Part shown: positions 6,231 through 49,261 of the stretch, one piece after another
How positions within the stretch are numbered: position 1 is the first letter of the stretch
Layout: each line of letters begins with the position of its first letter
DNA from: Candidatus Rifleibacteriota bacterium
Lineage (GTDB): Bacteria; Muiribacteriota; UBA6191; JACPRK01; JACQZM01
NCBI GenBank assembly: GCA_016213885.1
Contig: JACQZM010000163.1
Coordinates: 57,590 to 121,589 of the forward strand
DNA: 64,000 nucleotides
Reading direction: 5' to 3'
Notes under the pieces: generated by a model
Told to the model about the DNA's origin: nothing
The model's input: only the letters and a program-made list of their open reading frames with translations
Databases searched by the model: none
Position numbers and translations under genes: made by a program

Positions 6231-6536
6231 GAGATCCCTCCCACGAGAACCCTACTACATTATAAACAGCACCCGCTCCTGGTCGCGCAACTGGATCGAC
6301 GCCGATCCTCCCTCTCCCGATCCCGTTCTCACCCGATCCGCCGGGGGGGATCTCCCCTGGATGGACCTCGTCGGACTCGGGGGCCCACATGATGAGACGC
6401 CCTGAGCGGGCCAGATGGACACCAGGCCGAGGTGTCGCGGTCGGCGAGCATCGGCCGGACGCTGCGCCCTTGCCCCGGGTCGCGGCCAGAAGGTACAGTG
6501 CCCCGGGGTGAAGACACTGGTGGGGAGCGACCGTCG

Positions 6537-8906
6537 ATGGACCGGGTGAACCGACGGCACCTCGTCATCTTCGCGATCCTCATGGTGGCCTGCTGGGTGG
6601 CCGCCGGGATCGTGGGCGCCTCCTGGTTCCGCGCTCCCCTGGACCTCTTCCACAACCTCCTCTTGCCCCGGGCGGAAGAGGGGCGCGCCCCGCCCACGGC
6701 GCTGTCCCTCTCGTCGAGTCGCGTGGTGCTCGTGGACGTCTCCGTGGACCAGGGCGAGGGCTCGCCGATCGCCCCCCGACCCACCCTGGCCGACGTGATC
6801 CAGAAGCTGGGCGATCTGGGCGCCTGGGCGATCGGGGTGGACATCCTGTTCGAGAACCCCACGAACCCGGTCATCGACGCCAGGCTGGAATCGGCGATCC
6901 GGTCGGCCCGTCGGGTCGTGCTGGCGACCCGGTACGAGCGCAAGAGCCTCCAGGAGGTCCGTCCCCGGTTCGCCGACGCCGCCGGCTGTCTGGGCATCGC
7001 CAACATCGTCGTGGACAGCTACGACGGCTATTTCCGGATGGTCCAGCACTACTACGACCAGCCCGGGATCGAGACCCGGTTCTCCCTGAGCCTCCAGATG
7101 TCCAGGCTGATGCTGGCCGAGGGATCGCTGGACCTGGCGCCGGTGGTGGTCCGGAAGGATGGGCTGACGATCAAGGGAGCGGCCGGGGAGGCACTGGATG
7201 TCCCGTTCGATCGCCAGGGGATGAGCCTGATCCAGTACCAGGGGCCGGCGGGCACGATCCCCCAGGTCCCCTGGCGTCAGCTCGTCGGCATGACCAGGAA
7301 GCAGCTGGACCTCACGGGCAGGGCGGTCCTGGTGGGGGACACCCGGCTGGTGACCCGGGACGCGTACCTGACCCCGTTCCACCGGGGCGACCTGAGCCGC
7401 ATCTCCGGGGTGGAGGTGCACGCCCAGAACCTCCTCGGCATGCTCTCCGGGTCGTGGCGACGCACCACGACGCTGGCTACCGACTGGGCCACGGCGCTGG
7501 CCGGCGTGGCTCTGGTCGCGGCCCTGTCGCGGCTGGCGCCGGTGCTGGCTCTCCTTGGCCTGGTCTTGATCCTGGTCGTCCTGACCTGGTTTGCCAGCTA
7601 CCTCGCCTTCACGGAGCTCGCGGTCTTCGTGAACCCGCTTCCCGGCACGGTCGGGGCCGCGTTCTCCCTCCTGGTGACCCTGGTCCTCGCCCCCGGCGTC
7701 CGGCGGGCCCGGCGGGACGCCGCCCCCATGGATCCCCGACTGGTCAAGGCGGTGGAGCTCCTGGAGCAGGGGCAGGTGGATCGGTCCGTCGAGGGGTTCC
7801 AGGCTCTGCTTCCGGCCGACGGCACCGAGGCCGATCCGACGGTCCGGTGGGGGCTGGCCATGGCGTTTCTCGCCCTGAACAAGATCGAGCTGGCGCTGCC
7901 CCACATCGGCGGCCTGAAGACCGACACGCTGCCGCTGGAGCGCCTGTACGCGCTCGCCGAGACCCTCGAACGGATCGGAGCGCTCTGCGAGGCCGAGGAC
8001 CTGTTCCGTCAGATCCTGGCGCGCAACCTGGGCTTTCGCGACGCCGCCGAGCGGGCCCAGGTGCTGTCGAGCCGCGACCCCCGGGTGCCCGACTCGCTCC
8101 GGCGAACCCTGGTGCACCGGTACACCGACATCAGCTTCCTGGCGTCCGGCGGCATGGGCCGGATCTACAGGGCGCTGGACCGGCAGCGGGAGGAGTACGT
8201 GGCCGTGAAGGTGCCGGACCTGGAGCTGTTGAAGGACCGTGACGTGAAGAAGCGGTTCATCAGGGAGACGGACCTCTTGATGAAGCTGACCCATCCTCAC
8301 ATCGTCCGGCTCTTCGACGTGGGACCGGAGGAGATGCCGTTCTACGCCATGGAGCTCATCGAGGGCGAGACGCTGAAAGAGCTCCTGGACCGGGAATGGC
8401 GGCTCTCGATCCCCCGGGCGCTCCGCCTGCTCGGGCCGGTCGCGTCGGCCTTGGGGTTCAGCCACTCCAAGGGGGTGATCCATCGCGACGTGAAACCCGA
8501 GAACATCCTCCTGGATGCCCAGGAGGTGGCGAGGCTCACGGATTTCGGCCTGGCGTTCCTGGCCGATCGCACCCGGCTCACCCGCCTGAGCGTCAACGTG
8601 GGGACCCCCATGTACATGGCCCCGGAGCAGATGGAGGGCAGCCCCCCCTCGCCGGCGATGGACGTCTACGCCCTGGGCGCCGTGCTGTACGAGACGATCG
8701 GCGGCAAGCAACCGTACCGGACCGACTCCGCGGTCTCCAAGCTCGTGGAGGACGCCATCCCGCTCAACGAGTACCTGCCGGAGGTGCCGCGGGAGCTGGA
8801 GAAGCTGATCCACGCCTGCCTCTCCCGGGACCCGACCCGCCGCCCTGCCGACGGAACCGTCCTCTGCCAGAGCCTCGAGGCGCAGGCAGCGTCTCTCGGC
8901 GGGTGA
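6537..8906 (+). CDS. CHASE2-domain sensor Ser/Thr protein kinase
   Basis: N-terminal TM, an extracytoplasmic CHASE2-like region, three to four TM helices, a TPR-like segment, then Hanks kinase motifs (VAVKVP, HRDVKPENILL, DFGLA, GTPMYMAPE). Confidence 0.8.
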   Translation: MDRVNRRHLVIFAILMVACWVAAGIVGASWFRAPLDLFHNLLLPRAEEGRAPPTALSLSSSRVVLVDVSVDQGEGSPIAPRPTLADVIQKLGDLGAWAIGVDILFENPTNPVIDARLESAIRSARRVVLATRYERKSLQEVRPRFADAAGCLGIANIVVDSYDGYFRMVQHYYDQPGIETRFSLSLQMSRLMLAEGSLDLAPVVVRKDGLTIKGAAGEALDVPFDRQGMSLIQYQGPAGTIPQVPWRQLVGMTRKQLDLTGRAVLVGDTRLVTRDAYLTPFHRGDLSRISGVEVHAQNLLGMLSGSWRRTTTLATDWATALAGVALVAALSRLAPVLALLGLVLILVVLTWFASYLAFTELAVFVNPLPGTVGAAFSLLVTLVLAPGVRRARRDAAPMDPRLVKAVELLEQGQVDRSVEGFQALLPADGTEADPTVRWGLAMAFLALNKIELALPHIGGLKTDTLPLERLYALAETLERIGALCEAEDLFRQILARNLGFRDAAERAQVLSSRDPRVPDSLRRTLVHRYTDISFLASGGMGRIYRALDRQREEYVAVKVPDLELLKDRDVKKRFIRETDLLMKLTHPHIVRLFDVGPEEMPFYAMELIEGETLKELLDREWRLSIPRALRLLGPVASALGFSHSKGVIHRDVKPENILLDAQEVARLTDFGLAFLADRTRLTRLSVNVGTPMYMAPEQMEGSPPSPAMDVYALGAVLYETIGGKQPYRTDSAVSKLVEDAIPLNEYLPEVPRELEKLIHACLSRDPTRRPADGTVLCQSLEAQAASLGG

Positions 8907-9131: not shown

Positions 9132-9344
9132 GTGCCCATGGCGACGAACCTCGCTCTGGATGACGGCCTGATCGATGAAGCCCGCCGTGTCGGACAGCAC
9201 AAGACCAAGAAGGCCGCCGTGACCGCGGCCCTGCGCGAGTACATTCAGCGACGGCGACAGCTCAAGATCGTTGAGCTGTTCGGGACGGTCGACTACGATC
9301 CCGACTACGACTACAAGAGGGACCGCCGGAGGCGGTGCCAGTGA
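9132..9344 (+). CDS. vapB: Type II antitoxin VapB (ribbon-helix-helix, Rv0623/DUF2191-like)
   Basis: MATNLALDDGLIDEARRVGQHKTKKAAVTAALREYIQRRRQ...LFGTVDYDPDYDYKRDR matches the VapB family pattern (LDLDDxLL, LFGT.D.DPDYDYK). Confidence 0.8.
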   Translation: MPMATNLALDDGLIDEARRVGQHKTKKAAVTAALREYIQRRRQLKIVELFGTVDYDPDYDYKRDRRRRCQ

Positions 9345-9790
9345 ATGTCCTCGTGGATACGTCGATCTGGTCGCTCGTTCTACGCCGGCGCCGGAAGGAC
9401 CTGAGTCCCGACGAGCGTTCCATCGGACTGGAACTGACGGAGCTGATCAAGGAGGGCCGCGCTGTCCTGATCGGCGCAATCCGGCAGGAGATTCTCTCCG
9501 GCGTTCGCGAGAGAGCGACGTTCGATCGTCTCCGCGACCATCTGCGGTCGTTCGACGACGAAATGCTGAGCTTCGAGGACTACGAGGAAGCGGCCGCCTG
9601 CGGCAACCGTTGTCGCGCGGCAGGCGTTTCAGGGTCGATGATCGACTTCCTCCTGTGCGCGGTCGCCCGACGCAGAGGTCTCTCCGTCTTCACGACCGAC
9701 GCCGCCTTCGAACGATACTCCCGCCACCTCCACATCCGGCTTCACCATCCAGCTGGTCAGAACGATAGTGCGATTCGGCCGCGGCAGTGA
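9335..9790 (+). CDS. vapC: PIN-domain toxin VapC
   Basis: VNVLVDTSIW... has the PIN acidic residues (D at the start, E/D later, TTD near the C-terminus). A GTG start at 9335 or 9341 overlaps the vapB stop (GTGA). Confidence 0.8.
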   Translation: MPVNVLVDTSIWSLVLRRRRKDLSPDERSIGLELTELIKEGRAVLIGAIRQEILSGVRERATFDRLRDHLRSFDDEMLSFEDYEEAAACGNRCRAAGVSGSMIDFLLCAVARRRGLSVFTTDAAFERYSRHLHIRLHHPAGQNDSAIRPRQ

Positions 9791-11172: not shown

Positions 11173-12480
11173 ATGCCCGATTCTCGCGTGCACCTGACCG
11201 AGCCCCAGAAGGGGGTGTGGTACGAGGAGCAGCTCCAGCCAGGCACCGGCATGTGGAACCTCCCGTACCTGGTGCGGCTGCACCAGCCGGTGAGCCTCGA
11301 CACGGTAGAGGAGGCCGCCTGGCGTCTGATCGAGACGTTCGACGCCCTCCGCGTACGGGTAAAGACCGAGGCCGATGGCGTCTGGCAGCGGGTCGTCGAC
11401 GTCCCTCGCCGGCCGCTCGAGCGGGTCGACTTCTCCACGGTGGAGGGGCGGGCGCGGTGCGACACCTGGCTGGCCGGGCGGGCCAGAGCCGCGATCGGGC
11501 TCGGTGAAGCGCCCCCGGTCGACGTCGTCCTGCTGACGTTCCAGGACGGCTCCCCGGGCCTGCTCCTCAAGGTGCACCACCTGGCGGCCGACGGCTTCTC
11601 CATGGCGCTCTTGGTGCGTCACCTCGTGGAGGGGTGCCGGCGGCTGGCCTCTGGCGACGGGTCGTGGCGGCCCGTGCCGGGCCGGTCCGTGGCCGAGCAG
11701 GCAGCCGACGAGGACCGCTACCTCGCCTCGGAGCCGGCCAGCGCCGACCGGGCCCACTGGAGCGCCCTGCTCGACGGGGTGCCCGATCCGGTGTCGGTGC
11801 AGCCGCTGCGCCGATCCGTCGCCCCGGCGGTCGAGCGTGTCACGGTCCGGGTGCCTCCGGACCTGACCCGGGCGATCTACGACCACGGCCGGGAGCACCG
11901 CAGCTCCGTGGTCCGGCTGGTGCTCGCGGCGCTGGGGGCGTACCTGTTCCGGTTCTGCTCCGGCGAGGACGTGGTGATCGGCACGGCGATCTCCGGGCGC
12001 GTCGGACCCGGCGCCGCCGACGCCGTCGGGATGCTCACCCGGATGGTGCCGGTACGGCTGCGGATCGACCGGGCAACGACCTTCGGAGCGCTCGCGGACT
12101 CCGCGGCCGCCCAGGTCAGAGCCGCCAAGGAGCACCAGCTCTTCCCCCTGGGACTCATGCTCCAGGAGGTCCGGCGCCGCGGCCCGGAGCGCGACAGACT
12201 CCTCGACGTGGGCGTGTCCGAGTTCGTCGACCCGGGTCGAGAGGCCGGCGCCGACCTGCACTTCCTCTGCCCCGGGGCGGCGCCCCGCGAGCTCACGGTG
12301 TACGTGGCCAGCGATCACCAGGCCGGGACTCCCATCGAGCTCATGGTGGACTATCGCACGGACCTGTTCGGAGAGCGAGAGGCCGCGGCGCTGGTGGACC
12401 GGCTCCTGGCGATCCTCCGGACCGGACTCGCCGGGCCCGACAGACCGGTCGTCGAGCTCGACCTGCTCACCCCGTCGGAG
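11173..12480 (+). other. NRPS domain C1 (N-terminal starter-type condensation domain)
   Basis: HHLAADGFS at aa 135-143, placed N-terminal before any A/T domain. Confidence 0.7.
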
Positions 12481-15400
12481 CGCAACCAGCTTCTCGTCGC
12501 GTTCAACGCCACCGCCAGCCCCTACCCCCAGGGTCGCACCTGGATCGAGCTGTTCGAAGAGCGGGTGCTGCGCTCGCCCCGCCGGGTGGCCGTGGAGCTG
12601 GGCGACCGCTCTCTGACCTACGTCGAGCTCGACAGCTGGGCGAACCGGCTGGCTCGGCGGCTGCGCCGACACGGCGTCGGCCCGGAGGACCGCGTCGCGA
12701 TCGTGGCGGACCGGAGCGTCGAGATGATCCCGGGGCTGGTGGGCATCGCCAAGTCCGGCGCCGCCTTCGTTCCCGTGGACCCGGACTACCCCCCCGACCG
12801 CATCCGGTTCATCCTGAAGGACAGCGGCGCCCGGGTGCTGGTGACCCGGCAGCATCTCAGGGAGCGGGCGCCGTTCGACGGGGTGGTCGTGGATCTGGAC
12901 CGGCCACCGGACGAGGACGACTCCGCCCCGGAGCTGCTGGCCGGCCCTTCCAGCCTGGCCTACGTGATCTACACCTCCGGGTCGACCGGCAAGCCCAAGG
13001 GCGTCATGATCGAGCACCGCAACCTGGTCAACCTATGCACCTGGGCCTGCCGCTTCAGGTCGCTGACCGAGCACGATCGATGCACCAAGTTCACCGCCTT
13101 CGGTTTCGACGCCTCCGTCGTCGAGGTGTTCCCCACCCTGCTGGCAGGCGCCGCCCTGGTCGTGATCCCCGACGACATCCGCCTGTCCCCGACGCTGCTC
13201 AGGGACTACCTGGATGACCGGCGGGTCACCGTCTCGATCCTGCCGACCCTGCTGTGCGAGCAGTTCATGGAGCTGCCGGAGCCGCGGGCGTTGCGGTGGC
13301 TGTACACCGGCGGGGAGGCGCTGCGCCAGGTCACCAGGCGGCGGTACACGTTCTCGAACGAGTACGGCCCCACGGAGACCACGGTGATCGCCACGGCGGC
13401 CATCATCGACGGGCCCGGCGCCTCCCTCCCGATCGGTCGGCCCGTGGCCAACACCGAGGCTCTGGTGCTGGACCGGTTCGGCAACCTGCAGCCCTGCGGG
13501 GCGCCCGGCGAGCTCTGCGTGGCGGGGGACGCCGTGGGACGCGGCTACCTCGACCGCCCGGAGCTGACCGCCCAGCGGTTCGTGGCCCACCCGTGGAACC
13601 CTGACAGGCGGATGTACCGCACCGGGGACCTGGTGTGCTGGCGGGAGGACGGACAGCTCGAGTACCTGGGTCGCGTGGACCTGCAGGTGAAGATCCGGGG
13701 CTTCCGCATCGAGCTGGGCGAGATCGAGAACGTGCTGCGCACCCACCCCGGAGTGACCGATGCCGTCGTGGCGGACCGGGTCGACGCGGCCGGCGGAAAG
13801 TACCTGGCCGGCTACTACGTGGCCGACTCCGATCTGGCTCCCGGCGAGATCCGGGCGACGCTGGCGCGCCAGCTGCCGGACTACATGGTGCCGCCGTACC
13901 TGGTGCGCATCGACCGCATCCCGCTGTCGCCGAACGGCAAGGTGGACCGCAAGGCGCTGCCGGAGGTGTCCGGGCTTTGCCAGCAGAGAGCGGAGCCCGT
14001 GCCGCCGGGGACCCCCACCGAGACCGCCCTGGTGGGCCTCTTCAAGGAGATCCTGGGCGTCCCGGTCGGCATCGACGACAGCTTCTTCGCCATGGGCGGC
14101 CAGTCGCTCAGGGCCGCTCTGCTGCAGACGCGGATCGGGCGGGAGTTCGGAGTCCATGTGGCGCTGAAGGCGATCTTCACGGGGCCCACGGTGCGGGCGC
14201 TGGCCGTGGTGGTCGACCGGGAGGTCCGGGCGGCTCCGGCCGCCGGGATCGACGAGACGCCGCCGGCGCCCGCGGCGCCACCTCCAGCGGAGGCGGCCGC
14301 CGGCCAGGCGGCGACCGGGCCCCAGGCCCGCCCGGCATCGGCCACGGGGAGGTTCCCGCTCTCCCACGCCCAGCGTCGCGAGCTGATCACCGAGGTGATG
14401 CACCCCGGCACGGCCAGAGCCTGCCTGCCGTTCTCGGTGATGTTCCGGGGCGCCGTGGACCTCGACCTCCTGGAACGTGCGATCCACGGCGCCGTCGAGA
14501 GGCTCGACGCCTTGCGGCTGCGCCTCACGGCCCGGGGGGGCGACCACGAGCAGATCGTGGCCGAGCCGCGCACTGCCGGGCTGGAGCGGCTGGACCTGGG
14601 AGACGATGCCGACGGCGAGGCGCTGAAGGCGGTGCTGGCCGGGCGGAGCCGCCAGCCGTTCGGGCTCCTGGACACGGACCTCCACCGGTTCGTGCTGCTG
14701 CGGCGCGGCTCCGGCGGCGGTTTCCTGATGGTGCTGCACCACATCGTGGCCGATGGCTGGACCGTCAAGCTGGCCATCGAGACGATCGTGGCGGGCTACC
14801 GAGCCCTGGTGGCGGGTGGCGAACCGGACTCCACGCCGACGCCGTCGTACCGGGAGTACGTGGCCTCCGAGCAGGCCTACCTCGCGTCGGACTGCGCGGC
14901 ATCGGATCGCGACTGGTGGCTGAACAAGCTCGGCGACATCCCCGAGGAGGTCGTGCTGCCGTTCTGCCGGTCCAGGGAGTCCAAGGTGGCCGCGGACAGC
15001 CGGTGGTTCCGCCTGGACCCGGGGGTGACGGCCCGGATGCTCGCCCGTTGCGAGGCCGCCGGGACCACGCCGCACGGTCTGGTCCTCGCCGCGACCTACG
15101 CCTGGGTGGCGAGACTGACCGGCCTCGAGGACATCGTCGTCGGCACCCTGACCCACGGACGGGCCGGGCCCCGCGAGAAGACCCTGGCCGGGATGTGCGT
15201 CAACGCGCTGCCGCTCCGTCTCGCCGTCACGCCGGCCCTCCCGATCGGTGCGCTCGCCCAGGTCGTCGCCGCCGAGCTCAGGGCGACGCTGAAGGGGCAT
15301 GCCCGGTACCCGTTCGACCTTCTGGCCATCGACCTGCGCCGGCTCAACGGCAACCGGGCCGTGAGGCTCCTGAACGTCGTGGTGGTGGGTCAGGATTTCC

Positions 15401-18400
15401 CCGGGGATGCGGAGTACACCACGGAGTACCACCACGCCGGGGGGGAGCAGCCTCCGTACCATCTGATCTTGAACGTGGTTCACAACCGCGCCAGGGCCGG
15501 CGTCGTCGAGCTGCTGCTGGCCTCCCCGGAGGGGATGTTCACCGACGCCGATGGCGCTGCCATGGTGGACGACCTGACGAGCCTGGTGGACCAGCTCGTG
15601 ACGTCGCCCGAGCGCACCGTGGGCCAGCTGTCGGTGCCGTCGCTGGATCGAGGTCTCGTCGATGCGCGGCGAACCTGTTTCCCCCTGGCGCCCGCCCAGA
15701 GGCGGGTGTTCCTGGTGGAGCAGCTCACCGGGGTGGGAACGACGTACAACATCCCGGTGCGCCTCGATATCGAGGGGCCGCTCGACGAGGCCCGGCTGCT
15801 GGCCAGCATCGATGCCCTGGTGGACCGACACGGGGCGCTGCGGACCTCTCTCGAGATCAGAGACGGTGAGCCGGTGCAGGTCGTGCACCCGAAGGTGCGC
15901 TACCGCCCCACCCTGCGGGAGGTCGGGGAGGAGGAGATCGATGCCGCCGTGGCGGCGTTCGTGCGACCGTTCAACCTGGCGGTGGCGCCGCTCATCCGGG
16001 TGGAGCTGATCAGGATCGGTCGGGCCCGGCGGGCGCTCCTTCTGGACTTCCACCACACGGTGTTCGACGGCACCTCCCTCATGGTGTTCCTGCAGGAGCT
16101 GATGATGCTCTACGGAGGTCGAGAGCTGCCTCCGCCAGGCCTGCTCTACCACGAGCACGCCCTGCGCCAGACCAGGGAGCTGGGCTCGGCCAGGCTGCGT
16201 CGACAAGAGCAGTTCTGGCTCGCCGAGCTCGCCGACGGCGCCCCGGTGCTGGACCTTCCCACCGACCTGGCCCGTCCGCCGGTCATGGACTACCGGGGCG
16301 ACCGCTTCACGCTGGAGCTCGATCGCGACCTGACCTGCCGGATCAACGAGCTGGCCAGCCGGACAGGCTCCACCCTCTACATGGTCCTGATGGCGACCTT
16401 CGCGACGCTGCTCTCCCGCTATTCCGGCCAGGACGATCTGGTCATCGGCGCCGGGGCGGCCGGACGGGTCGGCGCCGGCGCGGAACGGACCATCGGGATG
16501 TTCGTCAACACCCTGCCGGTACGGTGCCGCCCCGCCTCCCAAAAGAGCTTTCTGGCCTTCCTGGACGAGACCCGGGACCACCTGCTGACCATCCTCGACC
16601 ACCAGGACTACCCGCTCGAACGGCTGGTGGAGAAGCTCAACGTGAAGCGTGACGCCAGCCGGAGCCCGCTGTTCGACGTGGGTTTCGTGCTGCAGAACAT
16701 GGGGATGCCGCAGCGTCAGACCGTGGGGCAGACGACGTTCGTCCGGCGTGATGCGGCGGCGCCCGTGGCCCGCCTCGACCTGATGCTGGATTGCCTCGAG
16801 GACAGCGGCCGGCTGAGGCTCTCGTTCGAGTACCGCACGTCGCTCTTCCTGCGTCAGACCGTGGGCCAGCTCGCCGGCCACCTGCGCAACCTGCTGCAGG
16901 ACGTGACCGCCCGGCCCGAGGCCCGCTTGGCCGACCTGCAGCTGCTCGCGCCGGCCCAGGAGCGGACGCTCCTGTTCGAGTTGAACCGGCCCCGGGTCGG
17001 CTGCCACGAGGGAGCCACGGTCCTCGCCCGGACGCTGCGCGCCCGGGGGGTGGACCGCGAGGCGATCGTGGCGTTGATGCTCGACAAGGGCCTCGAGATG
17101 ATCGTCGGGATCCTGGCGATCCTGAAGGCCGGCGGCTGCTACCTGCCGATCAAGCCCGACTTTCCCGCGGACCGGATCCAGTTCATGCTGGAGAACTCCG
17201 GCGCCCGGCTCCTCGTCACCACCCCGGAACACCGCGGTCGGGCCGGCACCTTCGACGGCCAGGTGGTGGACCTCCTCTGCACGGCGAGCTTCGACGAGGA
17301 CCCCGGCGATCTGGAACCGGTCAACACCCCCGGGGACCTGATCTACATCATCTACACCTCCGGCTCCACCGGGAAGCCCAAGGGGGTCATGCTGACCCAC
17401 CGCAACGTGGTGTCGCTGATGGCCAACGGCCGGATAGGGCAGCCCGGCTACTACTCCTTCGACGAGACCGACGTGTGGACCATGTTCCACTCGTTCTGCT
17501 TCGACTTCTCGGTGTGGGAGATCTACGGCGCTCTGCTCCACGGCGGCCGGCTGGTCATCGTGTCGAAAGACGTGGCGGTCGACCCGGCGGCGTTCGTGAG
17601 GCTGTGCAAGAGCGAGCGCGTCACGGTGCTGTCCCAGACGCCGGGAGCCTTCTACAACTTCGTCGCCGAGGATCTCAAGACCCCGGACCGCGACCTGACC
17701 ATCCGCTACGTCACGTTCGGCGGCGAGGCGCTGAAGCCGGCGCTGCTGGCCGAGTGGCACACCCGGTACCCCGGCACCAGGCTCATCAACATGTACGGCA
17801 TCACGGAGACCACGGTGCACGTGACGTACAAGGAGATCACGGACGTCGAGATCGCCGCTGGCGCCTCCAACGTCGGCGGCCCCATTCCCAACTGGACGAC
17901 CTACCTCATGGACCGGAACCTCCGGCTGGTCCCCCTGGGCGTGCCGGGAGAGATCTGCGTCGGCGGCGACGGCGTGGCCCGGGGCTACCTCGGCCGGCCG
18001 GAGCTGACGGCGGAGCGGTTCGTGGCCAACCCCTACCGTCCCGACGAACGGGTCTACCGTTCCGGAGACCTGGCGCGGATGCTGCCCTCCGGCGAGATGG
18101 AATACCTGGGGCGCATGGACTTCCAGGTCAAGATCCGGGGTTTCCGCATCGAGCTGGGCGAGATCGAGGGCTGTCTTCTGAAGCACCCGGACGTGAATCG
18201 GGCGGTGGTCGTCGCCAGGGCGGACCGGGACGGCGCCACCTGCATCGTGGCCTACCTGGTGTCGACGGCCGACGTCTCGGTCAACGCTCTCAGGGAGCAC
18301 CTCCTGAGGGATCTTCCCGACTACATGGTGCCGGCCTACTTCGTGAAGCTCGCCGGGATGCCGCTCACCCCGAACGGCAAGGTGGACCGCAAGGCGCTGC

Positions 18401-20361
18401 CCGAACCCACCCCGGACGTCGTCACCGGCGCCCGGATCGTGGAGCCCCGCAACCCGGTCGAGCAGAAGATCGCCGCGGCCTGGTGCAAGGTGCTGGGGCT
18501 CGAGCACGTCTCGGTCCTGGACAACTTCTTCGCCCTGGGCGGACACTCCCTGAGGGCCGTGTCGCTGGTCTCGGAGCTGCAGAAGGACTTCGAGGTCTCG
18601 GTGAACGACATCTTCTCCTACCAGACCGTGGCGGGCCTGGCCGAGCATGCCAAGGTCCGGGAGGACAATCTCAAGCTGCGGATCGGCGAGCTCAAAGAGC
18701 TCATCCCTGCGGCCCGAGCCACCCTGGACCGGGCCGAGCTGTCGGCCCGGCTGGCCGCCTACCGGGAGAGCAACCGGGCGCTGGCCGGGCTCGATCTGGA
18801 GCGTCGATCAGCCTACCGGAACGTGCTGCTCACCGGCACCACGGGCTACCTGGGCGCCCATCTCCTGTACGAGCTCATGACCACCCGGGACGTCGAGGTG
18901 TCCACGGTGGTGCGGGGGAGCTCCGACGCCCTGGCCGGGGCCCGGCTCGAGGAGGTGCTGGCCGGCTACTTCGGCCCCGGGTTCGTGGAGGCGCACCGGG
19001 GGCGGCTGCGGGTGCTGGCCGGCGACCTGGGGGCGGACCGCCTGGGGCTCTCCGAGAGGTGGTGGCAGGCGCTCGGAGCGGGGACCGACGCCATCATCCA
19101 CCCGGCCGCCACGGTGAAGCACTACGGGCCGTACGAGGAGTTCCACCACCACAACGTGAAGGCCGCGGCCAACCGGCTGGAGCTGGCCCGGACCGGTCGG
19201 CCCAAGGCGATGCACCACGTCTCGACGCTGTCGGTGATCCAGGGCCACGCCCCGGGCGTCCGGCACCTCTACCTCGGAGAGGACGATCTGGACCTGGGGC
19301 AGCGTTCGGACAACTACTACGTCAAGACCAAGGTCGAGGCGGAGCGCCTGGTCCTGGCCGCCCGGGCCGAGGGGCTGGACGCCCGCATCTACCGGGTCGG
19401 CAACATCTCCATCAACTCCAGGACCGGTGCCCTGCAGCGGAACATCGAGGAGAACGCCTTCTTCCACCAGGTGCAGGCGTTCGTCAACCTGGGGGTGGTG
19501 CCCCAGGTCGAGGACGAGGCGGAGCTCTCGTTCGTGGACCAGCTCGCCCGGGCCATGGTGTTGCTGCACGACCGCGAGGCGCTGAGGGGCCAGACGTTCA
19601 ACCTGTGGAACCCCCACCGGATCAAGCTCTCGGAGGTGCTCACCGCGCCGGGGCTCGACCTCGCCGTCCGGGCTGTGCCGCTGGATCAGCTCGTCGACCT
19701 GCTCCTGACGCGTTATGACGCCCGCGGCTTCAAGCCGCACGTCGAGGCGATCATGCTGCACCGGGGCTGGATGGATCTTCTCGCTGCCGGGCACGGCCAA
19801 AACGGTGGATCCACGCCGTTCACGATCTTCTCGGAGCGGACCGACCGGATCCTGGACCGGCTCGGTTTCGCCTGGTCCCGGGTCGATCCGCCGCTGCTTT
19901 CGGCCATGGTGGCCGCGGCGCTCTCGGCCCGGGTGGCGTCGTTCCGGTCGAGCCGGATGCTCGCCGGTTGCGACGACGAGACCGTGCTGGCCGTGGCGCG
20001 TCGCGCCCGGATGGGGCTGGCTCCGGCCGGCAGCGCCATCGTCTGGGAGGGGGCGCCGGTGGACGCCGTCCACGTCATCGCTGACGGCCACGTGGAACTG
20101 TTCTGCCGCTCGTCGGCCGGCTGGTTCGGCACGGTCGCCGTGCTGGGGGCCGGGGAGATCCTGGGCGAGGAGAGCCTGGTGGGTCACGGCGAGGCGGCTC
20201 TGTCTGCCGAGGCTCTGTTCGACGACGTGCTCCTCTACTCGATACCTGCTCAGGAGATGGCGCGGCTCCTGGACCGCACGCCGGCCCTGGGCCGGGCCGT
20301 GCTCGCCGCGGTGGTGAGGCGGCTGCACAGCACGGCGCGGCTGGTCGTGGAGATCTCGTGA
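11173..20361 (+). CDS. Non-ribosomal peptide synthetase, two modules: C(starter)-A-T-C-C-A-T-R(thioester reductase)-cNMP-binding domain
   Basis: Strong RBS AAGGAGG at 11158-11164. HHxxxDG motifs at aa 135, 1189 and 1627 (three C-type domains). Two adenylation cores ([50 protein letters not shown] twice). Two PCP motifs ([22 protein letters not shown]). SDR-type reductase ([20 protein letters not shown]). C-terminal Crp/cNMP-binding-like fold. Confidence 0.95.
   Translation: [3062 protein letters not shown]
12535..13960 (+). other. NRPS domain A1 (adenylation), substrate undetermined
   Basis: [28 protein letters not shown], FDAS..., YGPTE, [11 protein letters not shown]. Confidence 0.8.
14005..14217 (+). 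other. NRPS domain T1 (PCP)
   Basis: [16 protein letters not shown] phosphopantetheine-attachment motif. Confidence 0.8.
14350..15640 (+). other. NRPS domain C2 (first of two tandem condensation-type domains)
   Basis: LSHAQRRE (C1 motif), [21 protein letters not shown] (C5-like). Confidence 0.65.
15676..16960 (+). other. NRPS domain C3 (second tandem condensation domain)
   Basis: [36 protein letters not shown]. Confidence 0.7.
16990..18420 (+). other. NRPS domain A2 (adenylation), Thr-like specificity residues
   Basis: FDFSVWE (D235/F236/W239), [27 protein letters not shown]. Hand-extracted code approx D-F-W-S-T-G-M-V-H against Thr D-F-W-N-I-G-M-V-H. Confidence 0.7.
18440..18660 (+). other. 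NRPS domain T2 (PCP)
   Basis: [17 protein letters not shown]. Confidence 0.8.
18820..19900 (+). other. NRPS terminal thioester reductase (R) domain
   Basis: Rossmann motif [14 protein letters not shown], catalytic YYVKTK and the SDR fold. Confidence 0.8.
19950..20358 (+). other. C-terminal cyclic-nucleotide-binding (Crp-like) domain fused to the NRPS
   Basis: [79 protein letters not shown] follows the cNMP-binding beta-roll pattern. The canonical phosphate-binding Arg (RxA) is replaced (LSAEA). Confidence 0.55.
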
Positions 20362-20388: not shown

Positions 20389-23300
20389 ATGGTAGAATGG
20401 GGGTACCGATTCCGGCCGATTTCTCCGGAGAGCGCCTCTCGAGGCCTCATCAGTGGGGTGAATCGCGGTATGGACTCAACGCTCGGCCCGACGAAGCCCG
20501 ATGGCCTGCCCGATCGGACACCGCGGGCGCCGGTGCAGCGCTCGGGCGGTCCGAGAGTGGGCCTCAGGGGGCTCTTGATCCTGGTGAATCTCATCGGGAT
20601 CGGTGGCGGGCTCATCTTCTGGTGGATGCCGGACCAGCGACTGAAGGCCCAGACGCGGACCTGCTACTCCTACCAGAAGATCCTGTCCGGCGGCCTCCGG
20701 ATGTGGTGCGACGACCGTGGCTACCCACCGGAGACCAGAAAGAAGCTCGTCTTGAACGCCGACCTCCTGGCCGCCATGGGGATCGACGGGGCCTACGTCA
20801 GCTGGCAGATCCAGGATCCCGGGGGGGGAGCCGGCAGCTGGAAGTACTACCGGATCGTCCCGGAGACGCTGACGGTGGAGTGCCTGCACCACGGGCCAGT
20901 CGATGGCCCGGGACCGGTCTCGGCCACCAGGGCGCTGGTGCCGACGCCTCTCCGCTCCCCCGTTCCTTTGGCCCCATCGAAGACCTACCGCCGAGACACG
21001 GCCGAGGACCGCGCCGGGGAGCTGCAGCGGCAGGCCGAGGAGCTCGACCGGCGTCTGGCCTTTGGCCTCCTCGACGGCCCGAGCCGCAGGCGACAGCCCT
21101 CACCGGAATCGCCTGCCGACCGGGGCCCGAAGAGGGTCGTCCTGACCGCCGGTCCGGACGTGCCCGACGAGGTCCTCTCGCTGGCCCGGACGCTGCAGGA
21201 GAAGACCGGACCGGTGGCCGATCAGGCGCGGCTGCGGCTGATCCAGACCGGGGCGCCCGCCGTCCCCGCGTTGATCCAGCTGCTCGAGGACGCCAGCGCC
21301 GGCACCCAGGCCCAGGGGGCGCTCGCGCGGATCGGTGCGCCGGCTGTGCCGGCACTGGCTGCGGCGCTTGGTCACCGCGACCCGCTGGTGCGGAGCCGCG
21401 CGGCGTCGGCGCTCGAGCAGATGGGGCCAGCGGCGCAGGGCGCGGTCGCTGACCTCGGAAGAGCGCTGGGCGACGAGGTCGCAGGGATCAGGCGCACCGC
21501 CGTCGCCGCTCTGGGGGCGATCGGGCCGACGGCGGTACGGGCGCTCATCGATGCTCTGGCGCACGACGATCGGGAGGTCAGGGTCGGTGCTCTGCAGGGG
21601 CTTGCGAAGATCGGCCCGGCCGCGGCCCCGGCCGTCCCGGACCTGGTCGCGGCGCTCGCCGACAGAGAGGCGGGCGTGAGGGAGAGTCTGGCCCGGTCGC
21701 TGGGCGCGATCGGCCCGGACGCCGCGGCCGCGGTGCCGCACCTCGTCCGGCTCTTCACCGACTCCGACCGGAGCGTGAGAGTGGAGGCGGTGGCGGCGAT
21801 GGCCAGGCTCGGGCCTGCCGCCGTCGCGACCGTCCCCGACCTGGTACGGATCCTGAAGGATCCGGACTGGACCGTACGGAAGGTGGCCTGCGCCGTGCTC
21901 GCGAGCATGGGGACTGCGGCGAGCGTCTCGTCGCCTGCTCTCATGGAGCTCTGGAAGGACTCGAACGAGCAGGTCCGGACCGCGGCCCTGAGCGCCCTGG
22001 AGAGAGTCTCGCCCACGGCGGCGGCGCTCGAGCAGAACCTGATCGAGGCGCTGAAGCAGTCAGACGCGGCGATCCGGCGCGAGGCGTGCGAGGCGCTCGG
22101 GAGGCTCGGCCCGGCGGCCACCACGGCGACGCCTCATCTCGCCGCGGCCACGCGCGACCCGGCGCAGACGGTCCGGGCCGCGGCGCGGAAGGCGCTGGCG
22201 GCCGTCGGGGCAGGCTCTTCGAGCCTCTTCGCGTCGCTTCTCGAGTCGCTGAAGAGCGACCTGGTCTCGCACAAGAAGGAGGCCTGCCAGGGCCTGGCCG
22301 CCATGGGGCCGTCGGCTCGTGCGGCGATCCCGCCGCTCTCGGCGCTTCTGGCGCACCCGGACCCTTCGGTCAAGGGAGAAGCGATGAAAGCGCTGGCCAG
22401 CATCGCACCGACGCGGGAGACGGTCCAGGCTCTGATCCAGGGGCTGAACGACAAGAACGGCAAGATCAACCTCGCGGCCGCCACGGCGCTGGCCAGCCTG
22501 GGACCGGCCGCGGCCGGTGCCCTGCCCGATCTGGAACGTGCCACTCGCCACTGGAACGCCGCGGTGCGGGTCGAGGCGGTGAAGGCGCTGGTCGCCTCGG
22601 GGTCGCCGGAGGAGATCGTCCCCGTCATGGTCCGGGCGACGAGAGACGGCTTCCCGGAGGCGCGCCACCTCGCCTGCCAGGCGCTGGGGACCCTGGGCCC
22701 CAGGGCCAGCGTGGCGATTCCGGACCTGGCTGCAGTGCTCAGCGACAGGAACGACAAGGCCGCTCGCACGGCGGCCTGGGCGCTGGGCAGGATGGGGCCC
22801 GCCGCGATCCCGGAGCTGGTGCGGGTGCTCATGGATACGTCTCCGCGGCCCCGAGCCCACGCCAAGGTCGCGCTGGAGGCCATCGGGCCCGAAGGCCTGA
22901 TGGCGATCGAGAAGTACGGCTCCAGAGGCCGGTCCAGCGATCGCTCGGAGCTTTCGGAACGCGACATCGGCGCCGACGAGGGCGATCCGGTCGCTGTCGA
23001 GGCGACCCAGGCCGAGACCGCCTCCGGCCTCGACGTCTCCGGGCTCGTCGATCAGCTCCGGAGTCCGGATCACCGGGTGCGGGAGCGGGCCACGGCAGCC
23101 CTTTCGCGGGTCGGTTCACCAGCGGTGGCCACGCTTGGCGTCTCGCTGGCCGACGTGAACGCCACTGTGCGACAGGGAGCCGCGAAGGCGCTCGGGGAGA
23201 TCGGGCCGCCGGCAGCCGAGGCGGTCCCGGCGCTCGTGGCGGCGTGCAAGGATCGAACGGCCAGTGCCTCCGCCCAGAGGGCGCTCGAGAGGATCGGCCC

Positions 23301-23793
23301 CGCGCCGGCCAGCGCCATCGGAGCGCTCTCGGAGCTCATCACCGACCGGGACCCGACCGTGAGAGAGGCCGCTGCCCGGGCGCTGGCCATGATCGGCGCC
23401 GTCGCGGTCCCGGCGCTCGTGAGCTCCATGGGAAGCCGGTCCGGCGAGGCGAGGACGGCGGCCCTCGACGCCCTGGCCCGGATGGGTCCGGCGGCGCGCG
23501 CGGCGCTGCCGACCCTGCGCAAGGCGATGCACGACGGCGATGGATCGGTCAGGATGCAGGCCGCGGTGGCCGTGGGCCGGATGGGTGAAGCCGCCGTGCC
23601 GGTGCTGATCGAGGAGCTTGGCGCCCCGGAACAGTCCGTCAGGCAGCTGTCGGCATGGGCGCTGGGCGAGATCGGGCCCGAGGCCGGTCACGCCATCCCG
23701 GCGCTGCAGCAGGCTTCGAAAGACCCTGAGCCGTCGGTGCGCAAGGCTGCGGCGAAGGCTCTCGACAAGATCGGATGGGTGCGGGGCCGCTGA
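20389..23793 (+). CDS. Membrane-anchored HEAT-repeat (PBS-lyase-type) protein, about 1100 aa, 28 bp downstream of the NRPS
   Basis: N-terminal TM (LLILVNLIGIGGGLIFWW), then more than 20 HEAT-like repeats (ALGAIGPTAVRALIDALAHDDREVRVGALQGLAKIGPAAAPAVPDLVAAL...). Confidence 0.75.
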   Translation: MVEWGYRFRPISPESASRGLISGVNRGMDSTLGPTKPDGLPDRTPRAPVQRSGGPRVGLRGLLILVNLIGIGGGLIFWWMPDQRLKAQTRTCYSYQKILSGGLRMWCDDRGYPPETRKKLVLNADLLAAMGIDGAYVSWQIQDPGGGAGSWKYYRIVPETLTVECLHHGPVDGPGPVSATRALVPTPLRSPVPLAPSKTYRRDTAEDRAGELQRQAEELDRRLAFGLLDGPSRRRQPSPESPADRGPKRVVLTAGPDVPDEVLSLARTLQEKTGPVADQARLRLIQTGAPAVPALIQLLEDASAGTQAQGALARIGAPAVPALAAALGHRDPLVRSRAASALEQMGPAAQGAVADLGRALGDEVAGIRRTAVAALGAIGPTAVRALIDALAHDDREVRVGALQGLAKIGPAAAPAVPDLVAALADREAGVRESLARSLGAIGPDAAAAVPHLVRLFTDSDRSVRVEAVAAMARLGPAAVATVPDLVRILKDPDWTVRKVACAVLASMGTAASVSSPALMELWKDSNEQVRTAALSALERVSPTAAALEQNLIEALKQSDAAIRREACEALGRLGPAATTATPHLAAATRDPAQTVRAAARKALAAVGAGSSSLFASLLESLKSDLVSHKKEACQGLAAMGPSARAAIPPLSALLAHPDPSVKGEAMKALASIAPTRETVQALIQGLNDKNGKINLAAATALASLGPAAAGALPDLERATRHWNAAVRVEAVKALVASGSPEEIVPVMVRATRDGFPEARHLACQALGTLGPRASVAIPDLAAVLSDRNDKAARTAAWALGRMGPAAIPELVRVLMDTSPRPRAHAKVALEAIGPEGLMAIEKYGSRGRSSDRSELSERDIGADEGDPVAVEATQAETASGLDVSGLVDQLRSPDHRVRERATAALSRVGSPAVATLGVSLADVNATVRQGAAKALGEIGPPAAEAVPALVAACKDRTASASAQRALERIGPAPASAIGALSELITDRDPTVREAAARALAMIGAVAVPALVSSMGSRSGEARTAALDALARMGPAARAALPTLRKAMHDGDGSVRMQAAVAVGRMGEAAVPVLIEELGAPEQSVRQLSAWALGEIGPEAGHAIPALQQASKDPEPSVRKAAAKALDKIGWVRGR

Positions 23794-37505: not shown

Positions 37506-39045
37506 GCAGAGCCGCCGGGCGACCGGGCGGACTCGAGGGGGGCAAGATGACCGATCTCGTGTGCGCCGTGGATGCAGGGACGACCCGCATCAAGGCCGCC
37601 CTGGTCGACTCCACGGGAAGGGTGAGACGGCTCGCCGCGGCTCCCACGCCCTCGAGCAGCCCGGGTCGGGCTCTCCCTGACGTGGATGCCCGGGCGTGCG
37701 CGGATCTGACCTGCGACCTGATCCGGTCGGCTCTCCGGAAGGGGTCGATCTCGCCCCGCCGGGTGAAGGCGCTGGTCGTCACGGGCCAGCGCGCCACCGT
37801 GGTGCCGCTCGACCGGGCGGGCGACCCGGCCGGCCCTGGCCTCTCCTGGCAGGACACGCGCTGCGCCCCGGCGCTGGAGCGGTTCCACTCGAGGCTGGGG
37901 GCCCGGCGGTTCTCCCGGATCACGGGGCTCCCGCCCAGCGCCCTGTGGACCCTCGGGAAGATCCTGTGGCTGAAGGAGGCGACCGACGGGGCGGCCCGAT
38001 CGACCCTCCGGTTCGCCCTGCTGGTGGACTACCTGCTGTCGCGCCTGGGAACGCGCGACCTGGTCACGGACCGCTCCCACGCCTCCCTGACCGGCCTCCT
38101 GGATCTCGCCACGTCGGCCTGGTCCGACGAGATCCTCGCGGCCGCGAGGGTCGATCCGTCGCAGCTGCCGGCGCTGGTCCAGTCCGGCTCGATCGTGGGC
38201 AGGCTGAGCCGATCGGCCGCAACGGCCACCGGCCTCGAAGAGGGTACGGCGCTGGTGGCCGGCGGGGGCGACCAGCAGTGCGCGGCGCTGGCCGTGGGGG
38301 CGCTGCAGCCGGGCGTGGCGAGCCTGTGCCTCGGAACCGCGGCGGTGCTGAGCTGTCCGGTGACCCGACCGGTGAGGGACCGGTCCGGCCGCTCGTTCTG
38401 CACCGTCCACGTGATCGATGGACGGTGGATGCTGGAAGGGATCCACAACACCTTCGGCAGCGCCCTGAACTGGGCCCGTCGCCTTCTGGGGCTCACGTCG
38501 AGCCGGGCGTTCATGCGCTGCGCCGCCGGCGGCGCTCCCGGCTCGTCCGGCGCCACCTTCCTCCCGTTCCTGGCCGGCATCGGCTCGCCGGACTACGACG
38601 CCTCGCGTCGTGGCGCGCTGCTGGGTCTGGGGCTCTCGACCGGCCGGTCCGACGTGGCCAGGGCAGTGCTCGAGGGGGTATGCCTGGAGGTCCGCCGGAT
38701 CGTCGACTCCCTGGAGCGCCATGTCCGGATCGAGCGCCTGATCGTCTCCGGAGGCGCCTCGATCCAGCGCTCCGTGGCCTCGATGCTGGCCGGCCTGACC
38801 GGTCGCACCGTCGTGGTCCAGCGGGAACCGGAGACGACGCTCCTCGGGGCGGCGATGCTCGCCTGGACCGCCATCGGCCGGTTCAGCGACCCGGCCGCCG
38901 CGTTCCTCGAGCTGGGAGGATCTCCCGGCAGACCGATGAGGCCCGCGGACCCCGCCGGTTCGGATATACTCAATCGGCGCTATCTTCGACAGCTCCACGA
39001 GCTCAGAAGTCGCGGGGGGCCGGCGGCCCCAGGGGAGGGAGCGGC

Positions 39046-39049
<4 letters not shown>
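37502..39049 (+). CDS. FGGY-family carbohydrate kinase (xylulokinase/glycerol kinase-like)
   Basis: DAGTTRIKAAL (N-terminal sugar-kinase motif) and GGGDQQCAALAVGA...FLPFLAG. ATG overlaps the msrA stop (ATGA). Confidence 0.8.
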
Positions 39050-42465
<3,416 letters not shown>

Positions 42466-45400: not shown

Positions 45401-45774
45401 GTACTCGAGAACGCGGCTGCGGGCCCAGTAGATGTCCGTACCGTCCTGGAAGATGACGTACACGTAGGAGAATCCGAAATCCGAGAATCCGCGGATCGCC
45501 TTGACCTTCGGCACTCCCAGGAGCGCCGTGATGATCGGGTAGGTCACCTGGTCCTCGACGATGTCGGGGCTGCGATCCCACTTCGTGAAGACGATGACCT
45601 GGGTGTCCGACAGGTCCGGGATGGCATCGAGCGCGATGTTCTTCATCGCGAAGATCGCGTAGGCCACCGAGGCCGCGGTCAGCATGATGACGAGCGCCCT
45701 GTTCGTGGCCGAGAACCCGATCAGTCGATGGATGACCGTGGAGGAGGAACCGTGAGGGCTCTCGGTGTCCGTGA

Positions 45775-48115: not shown

Positions 48116-49261
48116 CTACCGGTCCGGGTCGAAGGCCTGGGCAAGGTCCTCGATCAGATCCTCGGCATCCTCGATGCCCACCGAGAGACGGATGGTCCCC
48201 TCGCAGATGCCTCGGTGCTCCCGCTCGGCCTTCGGGATCGAGCCATGCGTCATCAAGGGTGGATAGCGCGCGAGAGACTCGACGCCGCCGAGGCTCTCCG
48301 CCAGCGAGAAGATCTTCAACCTCTTCAAGAAGTCGTTCGCTTCGCTGGGCCCGCCATCGATCCGGAAGGTGACCATCCCGCCGAAGCCGGTCATCTGGGC
48401 AGCGGCGAGCTTGTGCTGGGGATGAGACCCCAGGCCCGGGTAGGCCACCGACTTCACGCGGGGGTGTCCGGACAGGAACAGTGCGACCCTCCGAGCGTTT
48501 TCTTCGTGCTGCACCATGCGCACGGCCAGCGTCTTCACGCCGCGCAGGATGAGCCAGGCGTCGAAAGGCCCGGGAATCGCGCCCACGGCGTTCTGGTGGA
48601 ACTTGATGGCGTCGGCCAGATCGTCACGACGCGTCACGACTGCCCCCCCGACCACGTCCGAATGCCCCCCGATGTACTTGGTCGTGCTGTGGATGACCAG
48701 GTCCGCGCCCAGGTTCAGCGGGTTCTGAAAATAGGGCGTGGCGAACGTGTTGTCGACGGCGAAGGCGATCTCGTTTTTCGCGCAGATCTCCGCCACGCTG
48801 GCCAGATCGATGACCTGAAGAAGAGGGTTGGTGGGCGACTCCACCCAGATCAGCTTCGTTGTCGGTCGGATGGCCTTCTGGAAATCGGAAGGGTCGACAC
48901 CGTCCACGGTGCAGAAGTCCACCTGTCGGGTCTTGTAGACCGTCTCGAAGAGGCGGTACGTGCCGCCGTACAGATCGGCGTTGGCGACCACGTGGTCGTA
49001 CGGTCTCAGCCACGACAGGGCCGCATCCGCTGCGGCGAGTCCCGATGAGAAGGCACAGGCGTAGCGTCCATCCTCCAGAGACGCGAGGCACTCCTCCAGC
49101 GCCGTGCGCGTGGGGTTGCCGGTGCGCGAATACTCGTAGCCCTTGTGCCTGCCGACCTCCTCCTGCGTGTACGTGGCCGTCTGGTAGATCGGGACCACGG
49201 TGGCGCCGGTAGCCGGATCGGGCTTCTGACCCGCGTGAATCGCCTTGGTCGAGAATTTCAC
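48116..49261 (-). CDS. PLP-dependent transsulfuration enzyme (cystathionine gamma-synthase / beta-lyase / O-acylhomoserine sulfhydrylase family)
   Basis: VKFSTKAIHAG..., lysine motif STTKYIGGHSDVVGG. GTG start at 49261 with RBS GGGAGG. Confidence 0.85.
   Translation of the reverse strand: MKFSTKAIHAGQKPDPATGATVVPIYQTATYTQEEVGRHKGYEYSRTGNPTRTALEECLASLEDGRYACAFSSGLAAADAALSWLRPYDHVVANADLYGGTYRLFETVYKTRQVDFCTVDGVDPSDFQKAIRPTTKLIWVESPTNPLLQVIDLASVAEICAKNEIAFAVDNTFATPYFQNPLNLGADLVIHSTTKYIGGHSDVVGGAVVTRRDDLADAIKFHQNAVGAIPGPFDAWLILRGVKTLAVRMVQHEENARRVALFLSGHPRVKSVAYPGLGSHPQHKLAAAQMTGFGGMVTFRIDGGPSEANDFLKRLKIFSLAESLGGVESLARYPPLMTHGSIPKAEREHRGICEGTIRLSVGIEDAEDLIEDLAQAFDPDR

Follow-up and report, generated by a model that had tools for sequence, protein, structure and literature searches.

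Nonribosomal peptide synthetases that end in a reductase fused to a degenerate cyclic-nucleotide-binding homology domain

Why should a nonribosomal peptide synthetase (NRPS) end in a domain of the cyclic-nucleotide-binding (CNB) type? The question is raised by a gene in a 64,000-nucleotide stretch of DNA (positions 57,590 to 121,589 of contig JACQZM010000163.1; hereafter the window) from a Candidatus Rifleibacteriota bacterium. The gene occupies 11173..20361 on the + strand as one open reading frame (ORF) of 3062 amino acids (aa) plus stop, and its domains run C1-A1-T1-C2-C3-A2-T2-R-CNB, where C, A, T and R denote condensation, adenylation, carrier and thioester reductase domains. The Pfam matches that underlie this assignment are Condensation (three), AMP-binding (two, each with AMP-binding_C), PP-binding (two), NAD_binding_4 and cNMP_binding. 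Each C domain has the motif HHxxxDG, each T domain GGxS, and each A domain TSGSTGKPKG together with NGKVDR. C, A and T domains follow one another as expected of modules, and their core motifs are in place, except that A2 lacks motif A1. A first-pass annotation, made from the letters alone, had read the order as C-A-T-C-C-A-T-R followed by a cyclic nucleotide monophosphate (cNMP) binding fold, and both Pfam and the motif scan agree with it.

Judged from the sequences of its relatives, the R-CNB ending is a conserved termination cassette of NRPSs that have one to four modules and come from several phyla. The most likely role of the CNB domain within this cassette is the control or scaffolding of reductive release, exerted either via a non-cNMP ligand or via dimerisation.

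Recurrence of the reductase-CNB ending

An index-free search of 1.84 billion representative proteins with the last 173 residues of the NRPS as query gave 102 matches at E <=1e-10. Among the best 150 matches, at least 44 proteins align with this tail from query position 1 to its end and carry it at their own extreme C-terminus, and many of these tail-bearing proteins are 1600-4900 residues long. Far from being a one-off, the fusion is therefore a recurrent one, and it is spread over several phyla. A word-indexed database, searched with a profile of the tail alignment, yielded nothing but ordinary Crp/Fnr proteins apart from P0009; its index misses the R-CNB family.

When residues 2540-3062 were used as the query, two partial proteins (P0001 and P0002) were found at 44% and 42% identity over 523 residues. 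Both carry the same Pfam set, and their sources are a Vulcanimicrobiota metagenome-assembled genome (MAG) and a Logan assembly. Seven long homologues scanned with Pfam all contain Condensation, AMP-binding, PP-binding, NAD_binding_4 and cNMP_binding, with the T-R-cNMP order kept in 7/7. When the domains of the window NRPS were mapped onto 32 members, the R-CNB ending was present in 32/32, and the longer T-R-CNB ending in all except two N-terminally truncated fragments. The commonest architecture in the family is C-A-T-C-A-T-R-CNB (~2610-2660 aa), and other members include one-, three- and four-module variants as well as C-C-A-T-R-CNB forms. Named sources are an Azotosporobacter soli isolate (WP_346355761.1), a Syntrophomonas MAG, Vulcanimicrobiota and 'Ca. 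Riflebacteria' MAGs, the rest being metagenome assemblies.

The window NRPS shares the features by which the family can be defined: T-R-CNB at the C-terminus, a Trp at the junction, the motifs WEG and GWxGT, and a phosphate-binding cassette (PBC) that lacks Arg. The closest tail, at 86% identity, belongs to a second 'Ca. Riflebacteria' MAG. Members carry generic database names such as 'amino acid adenylation domain-containing protein' and 'SDR family oxidoreductase'. Scans of genome contigs found no relatives, and a scan of metagenome contigs found a single weak relative, with 34% identity over the R domain.

Could the fusion be an artefact, in which two genes have been merged through a mistake in sequencing or assembly or through a frameshift that went unnoticed? 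In favour of this, the window sequence comes from a MAG. However, the reading frame is continuous over the NRPS, the R-CNB junction is conserved in 32/32 homologues from independent assemblies that include the isolate protein WP_346355761.1, and the Trp of the junction motif GFxWP is invariant in the family. Because the frame is continuous and the junction so widely conserved, frameshift and misassembly can be excluded; we give an artefact a vanishingly small chance and regard the fused gene as real with practical certainty, as a single gene free of undetected frameshifts, which is how it was first read. The ORF has coding-type composition (GC3, the G+C fraction at third codon positions, is 0.93; the surrounding sequence has ~68% G+C), and its ATG is preceded by a Shine-Dalgarno sequence, AAGGAGG, at a spacing of 6 nt. 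A different doubt concerns this copy of the gene, which may be a decaying or reduced synthetase with a crippled A2 and may make a shorter product or none, in which case its architecture would still be informative for the family. In alignment with the A1 domain and six family A domains, A2 (residues 1941-2415; 16993..18417, + strand) has an in-frame gap of 35 N-terminal residues that strips core motif A1, L(T/S)YxEL, together with flanking structure found in the A1 domain and the six relatives. The deletion junction lies near 17002-17007 (region 16984-17013, residues ~1938-1947), and L[ST]YxEL occurs once in the whole NRPS. Set against decay, the 9.2-kb frame is wholly open at the GC3 just given, the remaining catalytic motifs of A2 are intact, and the 86%-identical tail in the second MAG points to the gene being maintained. 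We therefore consider decay or reduction of this copy improbable, if far less so than an artefactual fusion.

Fold and degenerate site of the C-terminal domain

The C-terminal domain (residues 2906-3062; 19888..20358, + strand; Pfam core 20023-20277) matches cNMP_binding (PF00027) at residues 2951-3035 with an E value of 6.8e-13 and a score of 48.9 bits, where the gathering cut-off is 27.5, and the last 151 residues scanned alone reach 54.5 bits. AlphaFold2, run on the last 175 residues with a 35-sequence alignment, predicts helices, an eight-strand beta-roll and two further helices at a pLDDT (predicted local distance difference test) of 91.8. Foldseek comparison of the tail with the PDB returns T. 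thermophilus CAP, GlxR and M. tuberculosis CRP, and then PKA-R and HCN, at probability 1.00 throughout and with TM (template modelling) scores of 0.6-0.75. In addition, a profile of the family finds the CNB domains of PKG, PKA and CRP in the PDB at E values of 1e-36 to 1e-10. These results agree with the Crp-like fold that had been proposed for the extreme C-terminus, and that the tail has a CNB fold is hardly to be doubted.

In a pairwise HMMER alignment with T. thermophilus CAP, the match extends from the first beta strands through the end of the C-helix, after which ~7 residues of the protein remain. Winged helix-turn-helix domains (PF13545, PF00325) are absent from Pfam scans of the NRPS and of the tail. 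By this alignment, the tail corresponds to the N-terminal effector domain of CRP plus its dimerisation helix, without the DNA-binding domain.

The canonical PBC is described by Kannan et al. 2007 (PMC2246266) as FGE[LIV]AL..[PV]R[ANQV], in which the Arg is the phosphate clamp. In that study the clamp Arg and a Gly between beta2 and beta3 co-evolve in cNMP binders, families whose PBC departs from the canonical form, CooA among them, bind ligands of other kinds, and a synthetase or reductase fusion is not among the 30 CNB families surveyed. The PBC of the window domain (GEILGEESLVGHGEAALSAEA; 20152..20214, + strand) is degenerate. When it is aligned to T. thermophilus CAP (4ev0), the clamp Arg of the CAP sequence GERSASA falls opposite Ala in GEAALSA, and the second Gly of the CAP beta2-beta3 segment GDLGQ falls opposite Val, at a place where the family consensus is PND. 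Both features expected of a cAMP or cGMP receptor are therefore lost in the window, although its PBC keeps the Gly-Glu pair (GEE).

The same holds for the clamp position in the family as a whole. Over 46 family tails this column is occupied by Ser (26), Ala (13) and other residues, with Arg in 0/46, whereas the PBC Gly is kept in 41/46. Other positions are strictly conserved: W2901 of the GFxWP junction, G2972, and W2984 of the GWxGT hairpin are invariant, and WEG is nearly so. The window versions of these motifs are GFAWS, VWEG, GWFGT and, for the end of the PBC, ...EAALSAEA. Because the clamp Arg is gone family-wide and the beta2-beta3 Gly is gone in the window, the tail is a CRP-type CNB homology domain and probably not a cAMP/cGMP receptor. 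The absence of the clamp Arg had been noticed in the first-pass annotation, together with the possibility of a ligand other than cAMP or cGMP; the family alignment extends the first point to all 46 tails, and any ligand that the domain may have is unlikely to be either of the two.

Assembly line, predicted chain release and possible role of the CNB domain

The assembly line, all of it on the + strand, begins with C1 (residues 1-445; 11173..12507; HHLAADG at 11575-11595), a Pfam Condensation domain that is starter-like by position. It is followed by a complete A1 (residues 446-945; 12508..14007), in which AMP-binding covers residues 461-793 and is joined by AMP-binding_C, and which has the motifs LTYVEL, TSGSTGKPKG and NGKVDR. 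T1 (14035..14217), assigned by PP-binding and by its motif, has its phosphopantetheine serine in GGQS at 14104-14106. An Ala/Pro-rich low-complexity linker of 44 residues (1016-1059; 14218..14349) lies between T1 and C2 (residues 1075-1495; 14395..15657; HHIVADG at 14737-14757), which is a second starter-like domain by its PDB matches. C3 (residues 1500-1940; 15670..16992; HHTVFDG at 16051-16071) has its best Pfam stretch at 1502-1934. Beyond A2 stands T2 (18445..18672; PP-binding at residues 2431-2492), with its phosphopantetheine serine in GGHS at 18547-18549.

The three C domains differ in type. The best PDB matches of C1 are the peptidyl carrier protein (PCP)-C structure of FscG (LCL type, 1.4e-25) and PvdL (acyl-accepting, 5e-25), with CDA C1 and RzmA Cs at ~1e-19. 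C2 is closest to the C domain that stands first in PvdL, an acyl-accepting one (E 2.7e-34), and then to Txo1/Txo2, RzmA Cs and CDA C1. C1 and C2 share 32% identity and are both more divergent than C3, which matches TycC PCP-C (2jgp) at E 1.2e-100 and by that match is a standard elongation C domain. On these comparisons, the internal C-C tandem is a starter-like C2, of the same type as C1, followed by the canonical elongation domain C3. A pair like C2-C3 also opens the stand-alone C-C-A-T-R-CNB proteins P0033 and P0040. Since such proteins exist alone, and since an Ala/Pro-rich segment is present at residues 1016-1059, the gene may have arisen when a C-A-T gene was joined to one for a C-C-A-T-R-CNB protein, with the linker as the probable seam.

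The R domain, a thioester reductase of the NAD(P)H type (residues 2545-2905; 18805..19887, + strand; NAD_binding_4 at residues 2553-2795, 3e-45) stands directly after the last T domain and combines the NAD_binding_4 fold with the Rossmann motif TGxxGxxG, here TGTTGYLG, and the Thr/Tyr/Lys residues. The relevant positions are R2581, S2684/T2685, Y2716 and K2720, with YxxxK as YYVKTK, and G2555/T2557/G2558/G2561, T2685, Y2716 and K2720 are invariant in 27 family sequences. Foldseek matches include the MxaA R domain (4w4t, 30% identity), an archaeal T-R didomain (6vtj), the AusA R domain (4f6c) and also the R domains of carboxylic acid reductases. Because these catalytic residues are intact, the terminal R domain appears catalytically intact and the release of an aldehyde or alcohol is a reasonable prediction. 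A Dieckmann-type R* domain was also considered and was ruled out, since the NADPH-binding and Tyr/Lys residues are intact.

A route to a product can be proposed on this basis. Module 1 (C1-A1-T1) would load residue 1, which the starter-like C1 may N-acylate; C3 would couple residue 1 to the residue on T2; and R would free the chain reductively to give an aldehyde or alcohol. The specificity codes, read by hand against GrsA numbering and useful as leads only, are DAVIYGEVIK for A1, with no recognised match, and DFWSTGMVHK for A2, which agrees at 8/10 positions with the Thr code DFWNIGMVHK, so that the residue on T2 would be Thr-like. The product is probably a short, possibly N-acylated, peptide aldehyde or alcohol.

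How might the CNB domain bear on this release step? The model of the R-CNB didomain has a pLDDT of 90.4 and a pTM (predicted TM score) of 0.88, and helices are continuous across the junction. Because this pTM exceeds what is expected for arbitrarily placed domains of ~360 and ~160 residues, and in view of the conservation, we infer that R and CNB are held in a fixed arrangement without a flexible linker. The CNB homology domain would then be a fixed extension of the C-terminal, substrate-side subdomain of R and would modulate release. CNB folds couple the occupancy of their pocket to their N- and C-terminal helices, and by analogy the helices that would respond here appear to be welded to R. 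The mechanism to which we commit is thus one in which the CNB domain serves as a non-cNMP sensor or conformational switch acting on R.

Not all parts of this proposal are equally firm. It is somewhat probable that the CNB domain acts on R in cis, and the chance that the fused gene, the CNB fold, its non-cNMP character and its action on R in cis all hold together is slightly better than even, a judgement that does not cover a ligand switch. That a small-molecule ligand is involved, and not structure or dimerisation alone, is doubtful, with the balance tilted against a ligand. More tentative still is the specific picture of a built-in non-cNMP sensor that gates release through the reductase-fused helices, for which a metabolite, a redox cofactor or the released aldehyde would be candidate ligands.

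Two other explanations of the CNB domain need to be weighed against this one. The domain may be a ligand-free structural or dimerisation module, in which the C-helix pairs two chains or the domain buttresses R. The alignment with CRP covers the C-helix over its full length and the chain ends at roughly the start of the CRP hinge, the closest folds are the dimeric CRP and GlxR, both cNMP hallmarks are lost, and the last 10-20 residues have a lower pLDDT (67-77) in monomer models, all of which would suit such a module. Pairing might also permit condensation in trans, for example in single-module C-C-A-T-R-CNB relatives, and P0033, P0040 and P0061, which have two C domains and a single A-T pair, are hard to explain as monomers. 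However, NRPSs are generally monomeric, and the conserved Trp and Gly residues (WEG, GWxGT) are in the beta-roll and not in the C-helix, and a coiled coil alone would need none of them. With the C-helix retained and the junction free of a linker, a dimerisation or scaffold role fits as well as the allosteric control put forward in the first-pass annotation; a module that needs no ligand is nonetheless, in our estimate, less likely than not. The domain may alternatively be a true cAMP/cGMP receptor by which cyclic nucleotides switch the synthetase. The Pfam cNMP_binding match above threshold, the Gly-Glu pair kept in the window PBC and a fold nearest to cAMP-binding CRPs all point this way, but no family tail has the clamp Arg and the co-evolving Gly is Val in the window (PMC2246266). 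A cyclase gene is not conserved near the homologues, and in a manual alignment, which is a weak basis, the adenine-contacting Thr/Ser pair of the C-helix is not conserved either. We consider a cyclic-nucleotide receptor very unlikely. Between the remaining possibilities we favour the non-cNMP sensor or switch, with a dimerisation or scaffold role close behind.

Several observations weigh against our reading of the synthetase as one with a sensor-controlled release of an acylated peptide aldehyde or alcohol. The PBC Glu is conserved in part of the family (26/46 tails), which weakens the case for a ribose-like ligand, and no cyclase, transporter or other gene that hints at a signal is conserved beside six homologues. 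On the biosynthetic side, C1 is plausible as a starter C domain by its position and by a modest leaning of its PDB matches towards acyl-accepting C domains, but these matches include LCL types as well, and among the flanking ORFs scanned no acyl-activating gene was found near the NRPS. A2, with its motif A1 missing, may be impaired or loaded otherwise. The first-pass annotation had predicted a starter C domain and an N-acylated dipeptidyl aldehyde or alcohol: of this, the reductive end stands with the intact R, whereas the N-acyl dipeptidyl part is less safe because A2 lacks 35 residues.

Neighbourhood, significance and relation to known systems

The gene that follows the NRPS encodes a HEAT-repeat protein (1134 aa, at least 12 HEAT_2 matches in Pfam; 20389..23793, + strand) and begins 28 nt past the NRPS stop. 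No terminator-like site was found between the two genes, which are probably co-transcribed. An alternative ATG, at 20379 and in another frame, has the better Shine-Dalgarno spacing. One of the CNB matches, P0106, is a TLC-HEAT-cNMP protein. We considered the HEAT gene as part of a conserved system and ruled this out, as there is no HEAT neighbour at six homologue loci.

Cyclase, transporter, phosphopantetheinyl transferase (PPTase), MbtH and HEAT genes were sought beside these six homologues, and none recurs as a partner. The six neighbourhoods share nothing with the window or with one another, bar an occasional PPTase, major facilitator superfamily (MFS) transporter or free-standing C domain. 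Because they differ in this way, the R-CNB synthetases are essentially solo-gene clusters and have no regular companion in the HEAT gene; in the window, no other biosynthetic genes were found among the ORFs scanned on both sides of the NRPS. In Azotosporobacter soli, the R-CNB synthetase P0021 has directly downstream of it a gene for a GGDEF protein, a diguanylate cyclase (18081-18731 of its contig). Some CRP-like proteins bind cyclic di-GMP. The GGDEF neighbour is found at one locus only and is probably coincidental.

Upstream of the NRPS in the window are a CHASE2 Ser/Thr kinase (6432-8906), a VapBC pair just before the NRPS region (VapB antitoxin at 9132-9344 and PIN-domain VapC toxin at 9335-9790, + strand) and, on the opposite strand, a TPR protein, and downstream of the HEAT gene is an AAA ATPase, also on the opposite strand. 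The window is rich in signalling proteins, among them a hybrid sensor kinase of 1589 aa (37696-42465, + strand) with two to three GAF domains, three PAS domains, HisKA/HATPase and a receiver, a sigma-54 activator (56606-58015) and a further hybrid kinase (60436-61923). An AcrB/CusA-type resistance-nodulation-division (RND) transporter appears to be split on the - strand into two ORFs (42362-43273 and 43346-45778), which match Pfam profile positions 2-629 and 779-1019; the gene may be frameshifted or a pseudogene. It is adjoined by a CusB-like HlyD gene that also encodes a heavy-metal-binding domain (45775-47016). The longest ORF for a cystathionine gamma-synthase (48116-49699, - strand) has 527 aa, and because its match at 100% identity, encoded on a 133-kb contig of a 'Ca. 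Riflebacteria' MAG, has only 381 aa, the true start is probably internal to the ORF.

Control over the output of NRPSs is usually ascribed to transcription, to helper proteins or to post-translational modification. A conserved sensor-type fold on the release domain would add a level at which the enzyme itself gates or organises chain release, and the recurrence of the fusion across phyla makes a real function of the CNB tail more likely. If the domain is indeed a non-cNMP sensor, these NRPSs would be the first known to carry a ligand-operated allosteric switch in cis; even the more cautious outcome, in which the domain serves dimerisation, would be unusual among enzymes that are generally monomeric. 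R-CNB might in addition serve as a portable cassette for engineering. The family is also a compact target for genome mining, as it consists mostly of solo-gene, two-module synthetases of uncultured anaerobes, and among peptide aldehydes and alcohols are protease inhibitors as well as compounds from which pyrazinone signals are made.

The components of the window enzyme are well known; their combination, its conservation and the degenerate site appear undescribed. Full-text literature searches, whose scope left out subscription journals, found no paper that describes an NRPS-CNB fusion, in line with the first-pass annotation. The nearest known assembly lines are those of AusA (aureusimine), MxcG (myxochelin) and MxaA (myxalamid) and the archaeal T-R protein, which share with the window enzyme the C/A/T domains and an R domain of the short-chain dehydrogenase/reductase (SDR) type with TGxxGxxG and Thr/Tyr/Lys. 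AusA and MxcG are also the best partial NCBIfam matches of the NRPS, with no equivalog cut-off reached. Unlike the window enzyme, the solved or characterised R domains of these systems are without a C-terminal CNB domain, and profile and Foldseek searches of the PDB found no chain that combines R and CNB folds. The window enzyme further differs from the terminal-reductase NRPSs in its extra, starter-like C2 and its truncated A2. The C-A-T-C-A-T-R peptide-aldehyde synthetases of gut Clostridia are terminal-reductase NRPSs too, and the commonest architecture of the R-CNB family matches their type.

The tail itself finds its best sequence and fold matches, extending through the C-helix, in the effector domains of CRP/FNR proteins (FixK, FNR, CooA, CprK, NtcA). 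The end of the PBC, ...VTAEA in the family, resembles the FixK consensus ...FTAEA (PMC2246266, Table 1), and the clamp Arg is lost in the tail as it is in CRP/FNR families that sense non-cNMP ligands. In contrast to CRP/FNR proteins, the tail has no helix-turn-helix, ends at the hinge, and sits on the C-terminus of an enzyme rather than being free-standing; the invariant Trp residues of the R-CNB family (GFxWP, GWxGT) are not CRP features.

A functional parallel is offered by the CNB homology domains of KCNH (EAG/hERG) channels, in which the clamp Arg is likewise missing; these domains bind no cNMP and work by fixed contacts to a neighbouring domain of their own protein. The window tail resembles them in having a CNB fold without the clamp Arg and, according to the didomain model, a predicted fixed contact to the domain beside it. 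The KCNH domains are, however, eukaryotic and have an intrinsic-ligand strand after the C-helix, whereas no such strand is predicted in the tail, where the helix continues to the C-terminus, and there is no specific sequence relationship between the two. Precedents for CNB domains that work with adenylating or secondary-metabolite enzymes also exist. The cAMP-dependent lysine acetyltransferase of mycobacteria is a CNB-GNAT protein that acetylates adenylate-forming enzymes, and Family 2B encapsulins, found in the gene clusters for 2-methylisoborneol and geosmin, carry CNB domains as well. In both, the CNB domain has a canonical cAMP site and acts in trans or in a shell, whereas the tail of the R-CNB synthetases is degenerate and is placed in cis on the reductase.

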